From Longimicrobiales bacterium (lineage in GTDB: Bacteria; Gemmatimonadota; Gemmatimonadetes; Longimicrobiales; Gaopeijiaceae), in assembly GCA_965238005.1 (NCBI GenBank), contig OZ250165.1, positions 1,312,001-1,376,000 on the forward strand: a stretch of 64,000 nucleotides of DNA. The letters run 5' to 3'. Every line of letters starts with the position of its first letter. The first letter of the stretch is position 1. Below the pieces are notes generated by a model. It did not search any database, was not told the origin of the DNA, and saw only the letters and a program-made list of their open reading frames with translations. Made by a program: the position numbers and the translations under genes. This document shows, one piece after another, positions 4,397 to 61,021 of this stretch.

Positions 4397-5125
4397 ATGA
4401 AGCCTTATCTCGCGGGCGTGCTGGCGCTGGCCGTATGCACCGCGAACCCATCGAATGCAGCGGGACAGAATCCAGATGATCCCGCGGATGCCCTCTTCCG
4501 CCAGCAGAGGGCGGAGATGGTGTCGGTCATTCGGAGCGACGGCATCGTGGACACGGAGACGCTTCGCGCCATCGGCGCCGTCCCTCGTCACGAGTTCGTT
4601 CCAGCCGAGTACCGGCCGCACGCCTACGAGAACCGTCCCCTTCCCATCGGTCACGGGCAGACGATCTCCCAGCCGTACATCGTGGCGCTCATGACGGAGA
4701 TCCTCCAGCTCTCGCCGGGTATGAAGGTCCTCGAGGTAGGAACGGGATCCGGCTACCAAACGGCCGTCTTGGCCGAGGTCGGGTGCGACGTCTACACCAT
4801 GGAGATCTTCGAGGCCCTTGCGACGCAAGCGACGGAGCGCCTTCAGCGCCTCGGTTTCGGCGACGTCACCACCCGGCATGCCGACGGGCGCTACGGATGG
4901 AGCAGACATGCTCCCTACGACGCCGTCATCGTAACGGCGGCGGGCGGCTCCATTCCGCCGGCTCTGATCGAGCAGCTCAAGGTGGGTGGCCGCATGATCA
5001 TCCCGGTGGGGAGCCTCTACGGCGTGCAGCACCTGATCCTGGTGGAGAAGGTGACCCACGACGAGGTCCGCACGCGAAACGTGCTCCCGGTGAGATTCGT
5101 ACCGATACTCAAAGGCCTCCGCTGA
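4397..5125 (+). CDS. pcm: Protein-L-isoaspartate O-methyltransferase with signal-peptide-like N-terminus
   Basis: VPRHEF, GQTISQPY, VLEVGTGSGY, APYDAVIVTA, VRFVP. Confidence 0.92.
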   Translation: MKPYLAGVLALAVCTANPSNAAGQNPDDPADALFRQQRAEMVSVIRSDGIVDTETLRAIGAVPRHEFVPAEYRPHAYENRPLPIGHGQTISQPYIVALMTEILQLSPGMKVLEVGTGSGYQTAVLAEVGCDVYTMEIFEALATQATERLQRLGFGDVTTRHADGRYGWSRHAPYDAVIVTAAGGSIPPALIEQLKVGGRMIIPVGSLYGVQHLILVEKVTHDEVRTRNVLPVRFVPILKGLR

Positions 5126-9894: not shown

Positions 9895-11669
9895 GGGAGC
9901 CACTCGCTTGGAGATGTCGACCGACGAAGAACCGTATTCCGCGTCTCGCCCTCCTGCTCATGGTTCTTGCCATGACCGCTTGCGCTTCCGGTGAAGCTGG
10001 TCAGCCCGGCGATGCCGGATCCCTGGAAACCGAGACCCGCGTGGAGTTTCCTGCCACCAACCGCCCCGACGTCCGGGGCACGCACGGCGCCGTGAGCTCG
10101 GATCACTCGCTCGCGACGGCCGTCGGCTACACGGTGCTCCAAAACGGTGGCAACGCTGTCGACGCGGTGGTGGCCATGGCCGGGGTTCTGGCGGTCGTAC
10201 GGCCCCACATGAACGGGGTGGGCGGAGATGCCTTCGGCATCTTCTACGACGGCGAGACCGGCGATGTGGTGGGGATGAACGGCAGCGGCAGGGCGGGCGC
10301 CTTGGCCACGCCCGCATTCTTCAAGGAGGCCGGACACGAGGACATTCCCGGGTCTGGACCGCTCTCGGTGAGCGTTCCCGGGGCGGTGGCGGCCTGGGAC
10401 GACGCGCTGGCCCGCTTCGGCACGATGTCCCTCGGCGAGGTCCTGGCGCCGGCCATCGCCTACGCGAGAGACGGCTTCCCGGTCTCCAGCCGGCTGGCCA
10501 GCGACATCGAGGGCGCGTCACAGGGCCTCAACGACGCGGCGCGAGGCATCTACCTGCCTGGGGGCGAGCCCCCACGCGTGGGCTCGCTCTTCAAGAACCC
10601 GGCGCTGGCCGCCACCCTCGAGCGGATCGCCACCGGCGGAAAGGACGCGTTCTACAAGGGGGCGCCGGCCGAGGCCATCTCCCGGTTCCTGGAGAAGGAG
10701 GGTGGCTACCTGCGGGCGGGCGACTTCGCCGCTCACAGCACCACCTGGACGGAGCCTCTGGAAGGGTCATACGTGGACCACCGCATCCTGGTCTTGCCCC
10801 CCAACACGCAGGGGCTCGCGCAGCTCCAGCTGATGGAGATGGCCAAGGCCCACGATCTGGGCAGGATGGGCCACAACTCGGCGGACTACCTCCACACCTT
10901 GATCGAGCTCAAGAAGCTCGCCTTCGCGGACCGCGATCGCTGGGTGGCCGATCCCGAGCACGCCGACTTGCCCATCGATGCGCTTCTCGACACGGACTAC
11001 CTGCGTGAGCGCGCCGGCCTCGTCGGACCCGCGGCCGCGGACGAGGTCGCTCCCGGCATCCAGGGTGCGGTGGCCGCGGACCCCTCCCGGGGGGGGGACC
11101 ACGACGACGCGGGCGACACCGTCTACCTCACGGCGGTGGACCAGTGGGGCAACGGGGTGAGCTGGATCCAGAGCCTCTTCGGATCCTTCGGGTCCGGGCT
11201 CCTGGAGCCGGAGACGGGGGTGGTGCTCCAAAACCGCGGCGCGCTCTTCACCATGAACCCCGCCCACCCCAACCTCGTCGGTCCGGGCAAGCGCCCCTAC
11301 CACACGCTCACGCCCTTGATGGCGCTCAACGCCGACGGCAGCCTGGCTTTCACCCTCGGCACGCCAGGTGGCGACAGCCAAACCCAGTCGCTGATCCAGA
11401 TCGTGAACAACCTCTTCCTATTCGGGATGACGCCTCAGGAGAGCATCGAAGCGCCCCGCTTCCGGAGCTACGACGACCTCAGTGTGGCCTTCGAGGATCG
11501 ATTCCCGGGAGCGGTCCTCGCGGAGCTGGCGGCGCGCGGCCACGAGCCGCGGGTGACGCACGGCTGGACGGCCACCTTCGGTGGGGCTCAGATGATCCGT
11601 ATCGAGCCGTCCGGGACGCTTACGGCGGCGGCGGACCCCCGACGGGAGGCGTACGCCATGGCGTACTGA
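9891..11669 (+). CDS. ggt: Gamma-glutamyltransferase (lipoprotein)
   Basis: GGNAVDA, GVGGDAF, DT nucleophile site, GKRPYHTL, GTPGGD, ADPRR. Confidence 0.92.
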   Translation: MREPLAWRCRPTKNRIPRLALLLMVLAMTACASGEAGQPGDAGSLETETRVEFPATNRPDVRGTHGAVSSDHSLATAVGYTVLQNGGNAVDAVVAMAGVLAVVRPHMNGVGGDAFGIFYDGETGDVVGMNGSGRAGALATPAFFKEAGHEDIPGSGPLSVSVPGAVAAWDDALARFGTMSLGEVLAPAIAYARDGFPVSSRLASDIEGASQGLNDAARGIYLPGGEPPRVGSLFKNPALAATLERIATGGKDAFYKGAPAEAISRFLEKEGGYLRAGDFAAHSTTWTEPLEGSYVDHRILVLPPNTQGLAQLQLMEMAKAHDLGRMGHNSADYLHTLIELKKLAFADRDRWVADPEHADLPIDALLDTDYLRERAGLVGPAAADEVAPGIQGAVAADPSRGGDHDDAGDTVYLTAVDQWGNGVSWIQSLFGSFGSGLLEPETGVVLQNRGALFTMNPAHPNLVGPGKRPYHTLTPLMALNADGSLAFTLGTPGGDSQTQSLIQIVNNLFLFGMTPQESIEAPRFRSYDDLSVAFEDRFPGAVLAELAARGHEPRVTHGWTATFGGAQMIRIEPSGTLTAAADPRREAYAMAY

Positions 11670-13834: not shown

Positions 13835-14117
13835 ACCTTGGATGGCAAGTCCTGAACGTTCCCGTGCGCCTTCTGTGAGTTCAGTTCAGCAACGAGAACT
13901 CCGTGAGAACATCGTGCATGACGTTGGTCGAATCGCACCGAGCTCGCAACCCTGCTTCGCATAGAACCTACAAGCGGGGTCGTTGATGTTCTGGCGTGTG
14001 TGTCTCCTGCCCATTCTGACCTCCTCGCTGAAAGCTGCGACCAAAGCCGGATCCTAACATCAACTTTGGTCTCGTTTCACGGGGTCACGTCACCTGCGGA
14101 GGCTCGTCGGATAGGCG

Positions 14118-16337
14118 CTACCGGGCCCCGGCGGCGCGGGCGCGGATTATGTCGATGGCCGCCTGCTCGGTACTGGTGAAGCGCACCGCGTTCTCGCGGG
14201 CCCGCTCGAGCACCTCCTTCGCCTGCTGGTGCTGGTTCAGCTGGCTGAGGTGCCCGGCCAGCCGCACGTAGCCGGCGCTCTGGTCCGGCGCGAGGTCGAC
14301 CACTTCGCGGAAGAGCTGGAGCGCCTCGGGGGGCTTTTTCAGCATGATCTTCACCCAGGCGAGCTCGGTGAGCAGCTGCTGTCGCTCAGGCGAAAGGTGG
14401 CGGCTCTGCTCGAGCAGGGCCTCAACCTCATGCAGCTGAAGGCCGCCGGACCCGAGCACCTGAACCACCCGCGTCCACTCGGACACCTGGATCACGGTGC
14501 GCACATCGAGCGGGTGCAGGGCGAGGTTCTTCTGGAACTCGTTGAACGCCTGCCGGGCAAGCGGGGCGACCGGATCGGTCCAGCCGATTTCCGCATAGTG
14601 CTCAACGGCCTTCGCGACCTGCTCGAGCAGGAGCCCGCGGGCTCCGTCGTTGTGGGGCGAGCCGAGCGCGAGCGACCGCTCGAACCGGGGACCCGCCTCC
14701 TGACTCACGTTGCCGATCGACCGGATCCACTCGGCGGTCTCGTCGCGGCTTCCCGCCGCGATCTCGCCGGCCCGCAGCTTCACCATCGCCTCCTTCGGGT
14801 CCATGCCCGAGCGCCGCGCCCACAGGGCGAGCTGCTCAACCCGGTGGCTCGCGTTGGCGACCACGGCGTACGTCTTGAGCGCCCGCATGTTCGCGAGCGC
14901 GGGAAGGACGTTCAGCCAGACCACGAGCGCCGCCACTACTCCGAAGACGCCTAGCGCGTGACCGGATCGAACGCGCGCGAGCCCCAAGTAGGGCGCGTCC
15001 TCTTCCGGGCTTAGCCACCGGTTGAGCATCGCCAGGAAGAAGAAGAAGTAGAGGTACGACGTCGCGTTCTCGAACCCGAACGTGACGTGGGCGAGGTGCC
15101 CCAGCATGAACGCGACCGCAGTCGCCGCGAAGGGACGGGAGACCGCGCCGCGCCGATACGCGCTGAGGCTGAGATAGACCGCCAGCGCGAACAGCCCGAG
15201 GTAGAGCACCAGGCCCACGGTCCCCTGCACCGCGAGGGTGTTCATGATCACGTTGTGCGCGTTGTCGAACCAGGTCTCCTGGACGCCGTACTTGAGGAAG
15301 TCCGGCCGGTAGTAGCGGTTGAACGCGTGGTAGTAGTTGTTCGGCCCCCAGCCGAGCACCGGGTGCTCTCGCCACGCCTCGGTGGCTATGCCCCAGGCCA
15401 TGACGCGGGTGTGCACGGTGAAGCTCGCGAGGGTGAGCCCCGAGAAGCGCCGGAGCCCGGGTGTCTTCTCGACGATCTCCGAGTCGCGAAAGACCGCCGC
15501 GAGGCTCCCGGCCAGGATCCCGATCAGCAGAGCGACCCAGAGCGCGACCCGCATGAGGCGCCTCTCGCGGAGCGTGATCGCGTACCAGAGGAGCAAGACG
15601 AACAGGCCGACCGTGAGCCCTATGAACGTGCCGCGCGTCTCGCTTAGAACGATGCCGACCGCGCCGAGCAAGGCCATCCCGAACGCGAGCGCCTTCGCCC
15701 ATGGTGTACGCTCCTTGAAGCCGAGCCACAGGCCGGAGAACACCACGTAGAGCCCGAAGCCGCCCAGGTAGCTCGCGTGGCCCAGCGTCGAGGACACGCG
15801 CTCGTCACCACGGTTCAGCAGGATCTGTGGGTCGAGCTTCTGGGCAATCGCGAGCACGCAGACGATCGTCCCGCAAAACAGTAACGCCTTCGTGAGTCGC
15901 GTCCAGGCGAGCTCGGTGCGGACGATCTGCGTCGCCGCAAGGTAGAAGAGCCCGTAACACAGGAGCGTCGCCATCCCGAGCATCCGCTCGTGGGTATCCC
16001 AGAGCGATCGGTGGACGTCGACGCCGAAGAGGGTGGACAGGCAGAAGCTCAGGAGGAAGAGCCCCACGGCGATGCTGAGCGGCGTCCGCCGTGGCCGGTA
16101 GCGCTCGGGGTGCACGATCCAGAGTGTCGCGTAGACCCCGCCCAGGGCGAGCGCGACCGTGCGGAAGAAGAGGATCTTCGGAACGACGAACGGGAAGATG
16201 AAAAGCTTCGGCAGCACAATCAGGGGCGTGACGAGCGCTAGCGCGATCAGCGCCACGGCCGTCCCCTCCAACCGACGCACACTCACGGCGAGCGGTCTCT
16301 TCGAGGTGGCGTCCTTCTTCTTCGGGGCTCGAGCCAC
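14118..16337 (-). CDS. O-antigen ligase (Wzy_C) family membrane protein with C-terminal TPR
   Basis: Many TM segments; STLGH, TRG, PVLGWG, NAHN; TPR-like helices. GTG start at 16337 with GAGG upstream. Confidence 0.82.
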   Translation of the reverse strand: MARAPKKKDATSKRPLAVSVRRLEGTAVALIALALVTPLIVLPKLFIFPFVVPKILFFRTVALALGGVYATLWIVHPERYRPRRTPLSIAVGLFLLSFCLSTLFGVDVHRSLWDTHERMLGMATLLCYGLFYLAATQIVRTELAWTRLTKALLFCGTIVCVLAIAQKLDPQILLNRGDERVSSTLGHASYLGGFGLYVVFSGLWLGFKERTPWAKALAFGMALLGAVGIVLSETRGTFIGLTVGLFVLLLWYAITLRERRLMRVALWVALLIGILAGSLAAVFRDSEIVEKTPGLRRFSGLTLASFTVHTRVMAWGIATEAWREHPVLGWGPNNYYHAFNRYYRPDFLKYGVQETWFDNAHNVIMNTLAVQGTVGLVLYLGLFALAVYLSLSAYRRGAVSRPFAATAVAFMLGHLAHVTFGFENATSYLYFFFFLAMLNRWLSPEEDAPYLGLARVRSGHALGVFGVVAALVVWLNVLPALANMRALKTYAVVANASHRVEQLALWARRSGMDPKEAMVKLRAGEIAAGSRDETAEWIRSIGNVSQEAGPRFERSLALGSPHNDGARGLLLEQVAKAVEHYAEIGWTDPVAPLARQAFNEFQKNLALHPLDVRTVIQVSEWTRVVQVLGSGGLQLHEVEALLEQSRHLSPERQQLLTELAWVKIMLKKPPEALQLFREVVDLAPDQSAGYVRLAGHLSQLNQHQQAKEVLERARENAVRFTSTEQAAIDIIRARAAGAR

Positions 16338-36026: not shown

Positions 36027-36671
36027 ATGAGCAAGATGCGATTTCTTCTAGCCGCCGTTCCGCTGGTCTTGCTGGGCTCGAGCCCGAGGTCCGTTCAAGA
36101 GCCCGCCATGAGTTTTTTCCTTACGAGCACGGGTCCCGGAAACGGAGCCGACCTGGGTGGTCTCGAGGGCGCAGACCGGTACTGCCAAATGCTGGCCCGG
36201 GCCGTGGGCGGCGATGACGAACGCACGTGGCGGGCCTACCTGAGCACCACCGGAGGGGGTGGGGTCGACGCACGAGACCGTATCGGTGACGGCCCGTGGT
36301 ACAACTCCCGTGGCGTCCGGATCGCCGACAACGGGGCGAACCTGCACAGCGACTCGAACAACCTCACCAAGGAGACCCAGCTCTCCGAGATGGGTTTGAC
36401 GATCAACGGCCGGGGCGATAGCCCCAACCGCCACGACATCATCACGGGCTCTCAAATGGATGGCACAGCGGCTTCAGCCGGAGACGACACGACCTGCTCC
36501 AATTGGACCAGTCACGGAGAGGGTAGTGCACTGGTGGGCCATCACGACCGTCAAGGCGGCGGGACGAACCCCACGTCCTGGAACTTCGCGCACGCCTCCA
36601 GGGGCTGCAGCCAGGAGAAACTCCAGGGCACGGGCGGCGACGGCCTCTTCTACTGCTTCGCCATCAACTGA
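36027..36671 (+). CDS. Secreted lectin/endostatin-like conserved hypothetical protein
   Basis: SFFLTS, GADLGGLEGADRYCQ, WRAYLS, DARDRIG.GPW, GLFYCFA. Confidence 0.75.
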   Translation: MSKMRFLLAAVPLVLLGSSPRSVQEPAMSFFLTSTGPGNGADLGGLEGADRYCQMLARAVGGDDERTWRAYLSTTGGGGVDARDRIGDGPWYNSRGVRIADNGANLHSDSNNLTKETQLSEMGLTINGRGDSPNRHDIITGSQMDGTAASAGDDTTCSNWTSHGEGSALVGHHDRQGGGTNPTSWNFAHASRGCSQEKLQGTGGDGLFYCFAIN

Positions 36672-36865
36672 CGCGGTGGGCTCCTCCGGAGCTGGGGGAG
36701 TCCAAGTCCTCGATGAAGTCCGTCGCCTCTTCGGCGCTCGGGCGGATGACGGAGAGGACGCCCAAGGTGGCCAGGATGAGAGCGAGAATAATGCGCGTCA
36801 TGCTGTGTGTGCGTATACTAAAGTCTCACGTAGGTTCCTGGCACCGACGAGAAGGAGGGCTCCCC

Positions 36866-37525
36866 ATGCGACTACGCTGTACTGCGTTCATCTTCATCAT
36901 TTCCTTGGGACTCGCTTTCGCCCAACCCGCGGCCGCGCAGGACGAAGGATCCACCCTCATCGCCGTGGGTGAGATGGCGCCGGACTTCTCCCTGCCCGGT
37001 GCAACCCGGTACGGAATCCTACAGGATCCGGTCCGCTTGTCGGATTTGAGGGGAGAGGCGGTGGTACTGGCGTTCTTCTTCAGAGCGCGAACGCGTGGCT
37101 GAACGATCCAAATGGAAGCGTACCGTGATCAGTACGCAAGCGTATTCCGGGGCGGCCGAGGAGTAACGGTCATCGGCATCAGCGACGACTCGCCCGAAGA
37201 GCTGGCCTCTTGGGCTGCCGACGCCGACTTTCCCGTCCTGTTCGCCCACGACAAGGGTCACGCAGTGGCCCAGGCCTATGGTCTCGGGCTCCGCTCCAGC
37301 GGGAACATCGCGTCCCGGTCGGTGATCGTGGTCGGTCCGGATGGCAGGGTCGCGTGGACCGCCCTCCAGTTCCGGGGGATCGACCCCTCGGCCTACGAGG
37401 AGCTCGGAGCCGAAGTCGCCCGTGTGGCGCCGGCACTGGACGAAGGCATGGAGGATCTCCCGCAGGCCATGGACGACGGGTTCGATGGAGAGCGGCTCGA
37501 GGGAATCGGACTCCCCGACTGCTAG
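36866..37525 (+). CDS. Exported AhpC/TSA (BCP-like) peroxiredoxin, predicted selenoprotein (UGA 37100-37102)
   Basis: Signal peptide, VGEMAPDFSL, AFFFRARTRG-TGA-TIQMEAYRD, VIGISDD; both track ORFs are in the same frame. Confidence 0.8.
37118..37137 (+). promoter_or_regulatory. Candidate bacterial SECIS hairpin
   Basis: GCGTAC-CGTGATCA-GTACGC; loop begins 21 nt after the UGA, with G as second loop base. Confidence 0.6.
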
Positions 37526-37531
37526 CCTAGC

Positions 37532-38095
37532 CTAGTCGGTCCCCTCCAGGGCGGTCATGACCGCCGCCTCGATGTCCTGGTCCGGTCCGACTCCCGTATA
37601 GGTCACGACGCCCTCGGTGTCCAGGACCACGATGTAGGACGTGGCAGGGGCCAGGAAGGCCCGCACCGCACGGCCACCTTCGTCCCAGACCGTAGCATAG
37701 TCGACGGGATGCTCCTCGAGTGCTCGCTTGACCGATCGGGGCGACTGCGACACGGCAACGCTGATTGCCAGGAACTCGATCCGGTCCCGGTACCGGTCGT
37801 ACACGTCGATCATCTGCGGGAGGAGCGCCTCGCAGATCTCGCACCATCGGGCGTAGAACTCGATCAGGAGGGGCTTTTCCCCGACGTGGTCCGCCAGCTT
37901 GAACGGATTCCCATCCAGGTCCTCGATCTCCACCAGCTCCGGTCGCTCGCCCAGGGCGATGCCCACTTCTCCCCGCTTTTGTGCGGAGGCATCGGCGGGC
38001 AGGATCGCGACCATCGCGAGTGCCATGGTAGCGGCCAAAGAGGGAAGGGCATCCGTAAACGGACGCCACGGGCTACGGCGATCGATCGTGTTCAC
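37532..38095 (-). CDS. TlpA-like thiol-disulfide oxidoreductase
   Basis: Signal peptide; EFYARWCEIC; GTG start overlaps the ccdA stop (GTGA). Confidence 0.85.
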   Translation of the reverse strand: MNTIDRRSPWRPFTDALPSLAATMALAMVAILPADASAQKRGEVGIALGERPELVEIEDLDGNPFKLADHVGEKPLLIEFYARWCEICEALLPQMIDVYDRYRDRIEFLAISVAVSQSPRSVKRALEEHPVDYATVWDEGGRAVRAFLAPATSYIVVLDTEGVVTYTGVGPDQDIEAAVMTALEGTD

Positions 38096-38811
38096 AGTAC
38101 CATGCCCACCTGTACGAAGTAGTACTCGGCCATCACCAGCATAATCACCGCAGCGGCCCTTTTGATCCAGACCATCCAGGCACCGGACGATGGGAGGGCC
38201 ACTCCGAAGCCGGAGAACAGGCCCACGCCCACCAGCAGAGCCGTCATTCCAAGAGAGAAGACGAAGAGGTAGAGGAAGCCCATCGCTCCCCCCTGGGTCG
38301 CTGCCACCCAGGTGAGGACCACGGCGAACGCCGGAGCCCCACAGGGTGCCGCCACGATCCCCGATGTGGCTCCCAGGAGAAACACCGCGGGGTAGGAGCC
38401 GCCTCCCAAGCCACCGGCCCATTCGAGCCAGCGCTTCGGCGCGGAAACCGGGATGATGTCGAACATGGCCAGGCCGAAGACCAGGAGCAGGTTGCCGATG
38501 GCGAAACGAGCCCACGGGCTGGCGCTGACCGTCCCGAACAGGGTACCCGTCAGGCCGGCGATGAGCCCTACCGTGGCGTAGAGCAGGGCCAGGCCCAGGA
38601 CGTACGTGAGCGTGAGACCCACGACCCTGGACTTCGGAGCGTCCTGTTCCGCCGTACCTGCCAGTATCGACGCCGTGATGGGGATCATCGGATAGATGCA
38701 GGGTGTCAGGCTGGTCAGGACGCCGGCGCCGAACAGCGTCGCCAGCGACAGGAGCGGGCTCTGGGAGAGGCTCTCCGACAGGCCGGCACTCTGAAGCATC
38801 AGGTAGGGCAT
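38092..38811 (-). CDS. ccdA: CcdA/DsbD-beta membrane electron transporter
   Basis: SLTPCIYPMIP and APCGAP; about 6 TM segments. Confidence 0.88.
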   Translation of the reverse strand: MPYLMLQSAGLSESLSQSPLLSLATLFGAGVLTSLTPCIYPMIPITASILAGTAEQDAPKSRVVGLTLTYVLGLALLYATVGLIAGLTGTLFGTVSASPWARFAIGNLLLVFGLAMFDIIPVSAPKRWLEWAGGLGGGSYPAVFLLGATSGIVAAPCGAPAFAVVLTWVAATQGGAMGFLYLFVFSLGMTALLVGVGLFSGFGVALPSSGAWMVWIKRAAAVIMLVMAEYYFVQVGMVL

Positions 38812-60358: not shown

Positions 60359-61021
60359 ATGCGGCTATACGAGATCGTCTACATCTTCGACGCTACCCTC
60401 GACGAAGATGCGGTCAATAAGAAGCTGGAGAAGTTCCATCCCCTCGTGATCGGAAGCGACGGCGAAGTCATGGCTGTCGATCACTGGGGGGTGCGTCAGA
60501 TGGCCTACCCCGTGAAGAAGCAGAAGACAGGCAATTACGTGGTGGCGCAGGTTCGCGCCGGCTCCGACGGACTTCCGGAGTTCGAGCGGGTGCTCAGACT
60601 CGATACCGACCTCATGCGGTACCTGGTCGTCGTGAACGAGGGGGAGCCTACGTCGGGGAGGTCGATCCTCGGAGAGCCCCCCCCCCGCGCCCAAGAAGAC
60701 GCTGATGACGACGATGACGATGACGACCATGCGGATCCTGATGACGAAGCGTCCGAGATCGATGATAACGCCGCCGTGCGGCACAGCCCTCCTGAGTTCA
60801 GCGGTGGCCGGGGACGCCGGCGTCGTATGGAGGGGCCGGTCATCGAGCTCCTCAACTACAAGGACGTTTCGACGCTGTCTCAGTTCATGACCGAGCAGGG
60901 AAAGATCTTGCCGAAGCGTACGACGAAGGTCACGGCCCGCTTCCAGCGACAGCTCGGACGCGCCATCAAGCGGGCCCGGTATCTGGCGCTGATCCCATAC
61001 GTCCGGGACCACGAGGTCTAG
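60359..61021 (+). CDS. rpsF-rpsR: Fused 30S ribosomal proteins bS6-bS18
   Basis: S6 YEIVYI...WG.RQMAYP, acidic linker, then S18 NYKDV...GKILPKRTT...QRQL..AIKRARYLALIPY in one frame. Confidence 0.9.
   Translation: MRLYEIVYIFDATLDEDAVNKKLEKFHPLVIGSDGEVMAVDHWGVRQMAYPVKKQKTGNYVVAQVRAGSDGLPEFERVLRLDTDLMRYLVVVNEGEPTSGRSILGEPPPRAQEDADDDDDDDDHADPDDEASEIDDNAAVRHSPPEFSGGRGRRRRMEGPVIELLNYKDVSTLSQFMTEQGKILPKRTTKVTARFQRQLGRAIKRARYLALIPYVRDHEV

Follow-up and report, generated by a model that had tools for sequence, protein, structure and literature searches.

A predicted selenocysteine codon at the peroxidatic position of an exported peroxiredoxin-like gene in Gemmatimonadota

The gene described here lies in a 64,000-nucleotide stretch of DNA from Longimicrobiales bacterium (Gemmatimonadota; GenBank assembly GCA_965238005.1, contig OZ250165.1, positions 1,312,001 to 1,376,000 of the forward strand). 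This whole stretch is called the window, and its numbering is used for all coordinates; related genome loci carry the labels L001, L002 and so on, the first two being on contigs CBDCMR010000004.1 and CBDCKN010000003.1. Two open reading frames (ORFs) within 36866-37525, separated by an in-frame TGA, are read with high confidence as one intact gene for an exported BCP/PrxQ-like peroxiredoxin with predicted selenocysteine (Sec) at UGA79. Confidence in Sec as the decoded residue is limited because the Sec machinery was sought only in the window and in the flanks of related loci. The features of the gene are as follows.

36866..37525, + strand: complete gene for a predicted exported peroxiredoxin of 219 residues, Sec at codon 79 (translated with TGA as U)
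36852..36858, + strand: Shine-Dalgarno-like AAGGAGG, 7 nt 5′ of ATG 36866 (read from the sequence)
36866..36937, + strand: predicted Sec-type (export) signal peptide, residues 1-19 or 1-24, with AFA/Q or AAA/Q cleavage (hydropathy heuristic)
37079..37081, + strand: Phe72 codon at the Pro position of PxxxTxxC (alignment)
37100..37102, + strand: in-frame TGA, codon 79, predicted Sec as the peroxidatic residue (aligned with the catalytic Cys)
37118..37137, + strand: hairpin resembling a selenocysteine insertion sequence (SECIS), stem 37118-37123/37132-37137, 8-nt loop CGUGAUCA at 37124-37131 (folding and comparison)
37316..37318, + strand: Arg151 codon (column invariant in two alignments of the family)
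37433..37522, + strand: acidic low-confidence tail, residues 190-219, ending Pro-Asp-Cys219 (predicted local distance difference test score (pLDDT) 61-71)

The gene runs from the ATG at 36866 to the TAG at 37523-37525 and, when TGA is read as U, holds one internal stop only, within the motif FFF-RAR-T-RG-U-TIQ. The Shine-Dalgarno-like context upstream of the start is the same in L001, L002, L004 and L005. Codon 79 falls on the peroxidatic Cys in alignments with solved BCP/Prx structures and with Cys-form homologues, in agreement with the first-pass annotation, which had placed the TGA at that position and had claimed that the fold continues behind it. The latter was borne out as well: the Pfam AhpC/TSA model (PF00578) was matched with E 2.4e-25 (89.3 bits against a cut-off of 26) in one stretch over the TGA, residues 34-164 falling on model positions 1-123 of 124; Redoxin was also matched. 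The AlphaFold2 model (71 sequences) was obtained with a mean pLDDT of 86.2, and almost throughout residues 31-190 the value is at least 94. Position 79 lies at the beginning of helix 77-88 in this model, and T76-R-G-U79 stands at the helix start in the manner of the T-x-x-Cp motif of peroxiredoxins, Sec/UGA replacing Cys. The conserved Arg is present; Arg151 is what we take to be the conserved catalytic, active-site Arg of peroxiredoxins. The top structural matches were BCP, Bcp1/Bcp4, a Burkholderia AhpC/TSA protein and AhpE (E down to 4.6e-13, target-normalised template modelling (TM) scores of 0.8-0.88), with 9a4d_B (BCP), 3hjp (Bcp4) and 3drn (Bcp1) at 0.84-0.86. The closest sequences in the PDB were 2ywn/4g2e and 2cx3 (BCP/Prx type; E ~1e-10).

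A scan of species-representative genomes yielded 511 relatives, and the locus counts given here cover the best 80 of these. All 80 are from metagenome-assembled genomes (MAGs), most of them labelled Gemmatimonadota, Longimicrobiales or Gemmatimonadales; three were binned elsewhere and three carry no phylum label. TGA was found at codon 79 in 80/80 loci (identity 48-95%), 72 being recovered by a first pattern and the remaining eight by a looser one. Synonymous changes exceed non-synonymous ones both before and after the TGA in close and mid-distance relatives, which indicates purifying selection. Against L004, the 46 upstream codons comprised 36 identical, 8 synonymous and 2 non-synonymous codons, and the 50 downstream codons 31, 16 and 3, respectively; the corresponding figures against L007 were 23, 15 and 8 upstream and 20, 22 and 8 downstream. 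The three codons between the TGA and ATG 37112 are kept as Thr, Ile/Val and Gln across the family. TGA is not a sense codon here, since it is the ordinary stop of 12 of the 24 other Pfam-supported genes of the window, and since the scan of the window for TGAs lying in frame between two coding-like stretches returned, besides the target, a single gene junction at 5123. A tandem second TGA-form paralogue (FFFRARGRG-TGA-TVQM) was seen in L022 at 14001-14567 (+ strand), ~3.8 kb 3′ of the first copy.

The SECIS-like hairpin noted on first reading was upheld by comparison. It has the form GCGUAC-CGUGAUCA-GUACGC (20 nt), begins 15 nt past the TGA and carries G then U at loop positions 2-3 (C-G-U...). 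Among 79 distinct sequences the 20-nt GCGTACCGTGATCAGTACGC, at +18 to +37 from the T of the TGA, is essentially invariant including third positions, the whole element being nucleotide-invariant in ~95% of sequences. The third-base entropy of codons +6 to +11 after the TGA is 0-0.23 bit, as compared with 1.0-1.8 bit for other invariant Ala/Arg/Gly codons of the gene. The codons fixed in the hairpin are Ala GCG (79/79), Arg CGT (76/79) and Asp GAT (78/79); CGT and GAT are rare in this genome, in which third codon positions are ~80% G+C. The same 6-bp stem and 8-nt loop were predicted by RNAalifold. The stem is extended to 7 bp in 42 of 74 sequences by the pair 37117/37138, both positions of which are synonymous sites; this pair covaries (CG 21, UA 18, AU 2, GC 1, unpaired 32) with a score that was reached by 0/500 shuffles. 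The 28-nt core folds with a minimum free energy (MFE) of −8.5 kcal/mol, equal stability being found in 1/200 shuffles (z = −2.48; −1.69 for 46 nt). The bacterial SECIS (bSECIS) model, as quoted in one figure legend (Fig. 2, PMC13188914), has a loop of 3-9 nt, a stem of 4-16 bp, a G within the first two loop positions, a UGA-to-loop distance of 16-37 nt and an MFE of at most −7.5 kcal/mol. With an 8-nt loop, a stem of 6-7 bp, a spacing of 21 nt and −8.5 kcal/mol, the hairpin lies within all four of the ranges quoted there. That the observation exceeds chance is shown decisively by the comparison across loci, and not by the fold of the single sequence.

Annotation pipelines were expected from the outset to split such a gene, and public proteins are indeed broken at the TGA. 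Close relatives (70-95% identity) in the protein search were 120-137 residues long, and most started at the Met four codons past the TGA. A short-length search returned 5131 short homologues, the best 120 of which all fit a break at the TGA: 102 start at that Met, 6 start later and 12 are N-terminal pieces of 77-78 residues that end in ...RTRG. The pieces are named "peroxiredoxin Q/BCP" or "redoxin domain-containing protein" in the databases. No model in NCBIfam captures the peroxiredoxin family of the window.

Full-length relatives were also found in the protein search with the read-through sequence (190-201 residues, FFP-xxx-T-x-G-C-TIQM). As first noted, the Pro of PxxxTxxC is replaced by Phe in the window protein (Phe72). 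This position holds Phe (76) or Tyr (5) in every one of the 81 TGA forms, and Pro in 104/105 Cys forms, P0003 being the sole Cys form without it. Four full-length database entries (P0016, P0037, P0045 and P0057) have L or W at the Sec position and F or Y at the Pro position; in these the depositing pipeline most likely applied another genetic code to the TGA. Monophyly of the Sec forms was considered and dropped, Sec and Cys forms being interleaved in the trees. The FastTree tree (186 rows) needs 6-8 Sec/Cys changes, at least 5 of them forced by starred branches; the IQ-TREE quick tree, for which the set was thinned to 67 rows by dropping any of fewer than 140 residues or with 78% or more identity to one already kept, needs 7 changes, of which 3 or more are forced. 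Both trees are unrooted and do not set the direction of change. A single origin of Sec followed by repeated replacement by Cys and Pro would be favoured by the SECIS element, which is identical in all Sec forms. That Sec always goes with Phe or Tyr in place of this Pro suggests that the active-site pocket may have been re-tuned for selenium.

The statement that the mature protein is free of Cys had to be corrected: the last residue is Cys219 (TGC, 37520-37522), the only Cys besides the active-site position. A 1-Sec enzyme without Cys, as proposed in the first-pass annotation, accordingly fits most family members, which are without that tail, and not the present copy. A tail with terminal Cys occurs in 6/80 loci (L001, L004, L009, L011, L016 and L021), and L030 has a penultimate Cys; eight database fragments end in PDC, and a Cys-ending tail was seen in no aligned Cys form. 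The tail is regarded as optional because L002 and L005 have lost it by a deletion and L003 has it out of frame. In L003 (~10535-10650) it is still encoded (...LLDC), in the +1 frame after a TAA, through either a frameshift or an assembly indel. Judged from these sequences, Cys219 may be a resolving residue in this copy and its sub-clade.

Export is predicted from the N-terminus, in which MRLR is followed by a hydrophobic core and AFA/AAA-Q; the signal peptide of the first reading was thus recovered, by a hydropathy heuristic and not a dedicated predictor. By the same heuristic script, a hydrophobic N-terminal segment followed by AxA-Q was found in 74/74 evaluable TGA-form genes (of 81). Two neighbouring genes bear on the function of the protein.

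37532..38095, − strand: TlpA-like thioredoxin with WCEIC motif, exported by the heuristic, convergent (Pfam Redoxin/AhpC-TSA/Thioredoxin)
38092..38811, − strand: CcdA-type DsbD-family membrane electron transporter (Pfam DsbD_TM, E 2e-39)

The TlpA-like gene ends 6 bases past the peroxiredoxin stop, on the opposite strand. A homologue of it lies just downstream on the opposite strand in 74/80 loci, and a CcdA homologue is next to it in 70/80; five of the ten misses are on contigs that stop short of 1 kb downstream. A peroxiredoxin, a CxxC thioredoxin and a DsbD-family transporter are hence encoded together, with signal peptides assigned by heuristic only. The TlpA-like gene starts at a GTG that shares bases with the TGA stop of ccdA (GTGA, 38092-38095, − strand), and translational coupling of the two is suggested by this overlap. 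An envelope peroxide-reduction pathway of ScsB, TlpA and PprX is documented in Caulobacter (PMC3322552). An exported peroxiredoxin, an exported TlpA-like thioredoxin and a DsbD-family transporter are common to that pathway and to the window. The three genes of the window are adjacent and their adjacency is conserved; in contrast to the Caulobacter pathway, a minimal CcdA (DsbD_TM only) takes the place of ScsB, and the peroxiredoxin uses predicted Sec. By analogy, the conserved neighbourhood suggests an envelope electron relay in which the TlpA-like thioredoxin is the likely reductant of the peroxiredoxin, so that the selenoperoxidase would be recycled by the TlpA-like protein and CcdA.

The following course of events is proposed. 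SelB and tRNA-Sec, recruited by the hairpin 15 nt downstream of the UGA, would insert selenocysteine at UGA79. In the envelope, the selenolate would attack H2O2 or an organic hydroperoxide and be converted to the selenenic acid. This would be reduced directly in most family members (1-Sec enzymes); in this copy and its sub-clade Cys219, on the flexible acidic tail, may first capture it as a selenenyl-sulfide. Electrons would pass from cytoplasmic thioredoxin to CcdA, then to the exported TlpA-like thioredoxin and to the peroxiredoxin.

Two further ORFs of the window were recorded. The upstream neighbour at 36027-36671 (+ strand; 214 residues) has a signal-peptide-like N-terminus and no Pfam match, and is kept upstream of the peroxiredoxin in Longimicrobiales-type loci (16 loci, 61-97% identity). 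At 60359-61021 (+ strand), a single ORF of 220 residues encodes domains of ribosomal proteins S6 and S18, in this order, which are linked by a poly-Asp stretch without an intervening stop; it looks like an S6-S18 fusion.

Several observations weigh against a selenoprotein. Neither selA, selB, selD nor tRNA-Sec was detected in the 64-kb window (Pfam, Rfam, ARAGORN), which returned no Rfam family in a gathering scan and no tRNA with ARAGORN. Motif and ARAGORN scans of the 80 related loci (1.26 Mb) likewise gave no sel genes and no tRNA-Sec; the motif scan of window and loci used SelD, SelA and EF-type G-domain signatures and is a weak negative. Rfam scans of L068, L016, L021, L001 and L002 were empty. 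Gemmatimonas aurantiaca T-27, the only Gemmatimonadetes genome in a 2016 survey, is without SelD and the Sec trait according to supplement file 2 of that survey (PMC5029168). As to the RNA element, the 61-nt hairpin is not significantly more stable than shuffles (z = +0.23), and the six stem pairs, which are unchanged in 74/74 distinct sequences and so never vary, offer no covariation evidence. The peptide encoded over the hairpin, AYRDQY, is conserved in Cys forms too; Cys-form DNA was sought among the 80 loci as a synonymous-site control and none was found, the L022 TGA-form paralogue being the only gene obtained. The coupling of Sec with Phe/Tyr is striking in the counts and statistically not established: of four independent contrasts on supported branches, three pointed in the same direction and one showed no difference (sign test, p = 0.25). 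The TlpA-like and CcdA genes, finally, are convergent with the peroxiredoxin gene and not co-transcribed with it.

An ARAGORN call in L068 (7816-7911, − strand; 96-nt "tRNA-Ala(cgc)"), ~630 nt upstream of the peroxiredoxin TGA, was considered as tRNA-Sec. It was dropped because Rfam finds no tRNA there, and is probably a false positive.

With no Sec machinery in the window or the related loci and a Gemmatimonas genome without SelD and the Sec trait (supplement of PMC5029168), translation might pass UGA79 with no selenium involved, Cys, Trp or Gly being inserted by a suppressor or near-cognate tRNA and the hairpin acting as a read-through stimulator, or UGA might be partly reassigned. The few family entries with W or L at the Sec position and F or Y at the Pro position would suit such decoding, and probably reflect other genetic codes in gene calling. 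This explanation is considered improbable: TGA stops 12/24 genes of the window, and an internal TGA occurs in no other gene there; the position, loop and energy of the hairpin fit the SelB-dependent bSECIS model in the form quoted above; and the standard signature of a selenoprotein, according to PMC13188914, is a UGA that falls on a redox Cys where Cys-form homologues exist. A second TGA-containing AhpC/TSA gene is moreover present on related MAG contigs, in L016 (3487-4281, − strand) and L021 (2902-3573, − strand). It reads FYRGHW-U-PWC (UxxC), is matched by Pfam with E 1e-28, and its UGA is followed after 17 nt by a hairpin that has GGU in the loop. This candidate selenoprotein may be membrane-anchored or exported, and would lend partial, indirect support to the use of Sec.

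Selenocysteine at UGA79 of a single gene is also preferred over two separate polypeptides, namely an exported N-terminal fragment of 78 residues and a 137-residue protein made from ATG 37112. Gene callers yield precisely these two ORFs, and the best 120 of the 5131 short matches include 12 N-terminal fragments and 102 C-terminal ones that start at that Met. Nevertheless, such a division is highly improbable: no Shine-Dalgarno-like site precedes ATG 37112, whereas AAGGAGG precedes ATG 36866; the codons for Thr, Ile/Val and Gln between the TGA and that ATG are conserved; the C-terminal piece would be without signal peptide and catalytic residue; and the thioredoxin fold crosses the break as one domain. 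A pseudogene, in which a plain nonsense mutation (TGC or TGT to TGA, a one-base change that a single sequence could not exclude) had hit the catalytic Cys codon, is refuted by comparison across the loci, as the same TGA stands in 80/80 loci from many species, synonymous changes prevail downstream of it and a nucleotide-invariant element is kept there.

We take PrxU of Eubacterium acidaminophilum to be the prototype Sec-peroxiredoxin. It resembles the window protein in its AhpC/TSA domain and in having Sec in place of the peroxidatic Cys in T-x-x-U; as in the window gene, a hairpin lies just past the UGA, and Cys-form homologues exist. The window protein differs in that it carries an export signal (by heuristic) and comes from Gemmatimonadota, and it scores 36.9 bits with the PrxU equivalog model (NCBIfam NF040737), far below the cut-off of 270. 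Peroxiredoxins with TxxU are a long-known, established bacterial selenoprotein family; they appear in PMC2398784 (Table 2), PMC5029168 (top-20 table) and PMC13188914 (Table 1). PxxxTxxU is called "highly conserved" in Sec-peroxiredoxins in the last of these, a 2026 review, in contrast to F/YxxxTxxU here. By sequence and fold, the closest subfamily is BCP/PrxQ, with which the monomer-sized single domain is shared; the scores with its equivalog models remained below the cut-offs (NF006960, 56.2 against 140; NF053650, 33.2 against 260). Unlike BCP/PrxQ, the window protein has predicted Sec for Cys, Phe for Pro and predicted export, and its extra Cys is in the C-terminal tail and not in helix alpha2 or alpha3. 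A literature search combining selenoprotein or selenocysteine with Gemmatimonadetes or Gemmatimonadota returned nothing specific to the family, and none of the papers covered by it tied selenoproteins to this phylum in particular. Gemmatimonadota are not mentioned in the text of the BSepDB paper; its supplement was not covered, so a prior listing there is possible. The proteins thus apparently form an undescribed, distinct exported F/YxxxTxxU clade of the known Sec-peroxiredoxin kind.

Taken as a whole, a wider reading is put forward tentatively, at somewhat less than even confidence. Gemmatimonadota would widely encode an envelope selenoperoxidase in which Sec is tied to the exchange of Pro for Phe or Tyr; the 20-nt SECIS would be frozen across the phylum; Cys and Pro forms would have arisen from the Sec form several times; some lineages would have added a C-terminal resolving Cys; and the system would be fed by CcdA and TlpA. 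If this is true, the family would be a natural experiment that could show which active-site features a peroxiredoxin requires for the use of selenium. The pairing of Sec with Phe/Tyr and of Cys with Pro at a hallmark residue of peroxiredoxins is directly testable, and touches on the question of how, and for what reason, enzymes make use of selenium. An exported selenoperoxidase with CcdA and TlpA would, if real, extend envelope peroxide reduction of the Caulobacter type to another phylum, with selenium chemistry. Because the best 120 short homologues are halves of the gene and no NCBIfam model covers it, the selenoproteome and antioxidant inventories of Gemmatimonadota MAGs are probably understated; should the wider reading hold, thousands of "peroxiredoxin" fragments in the databases would be halves of one selenoprotein.

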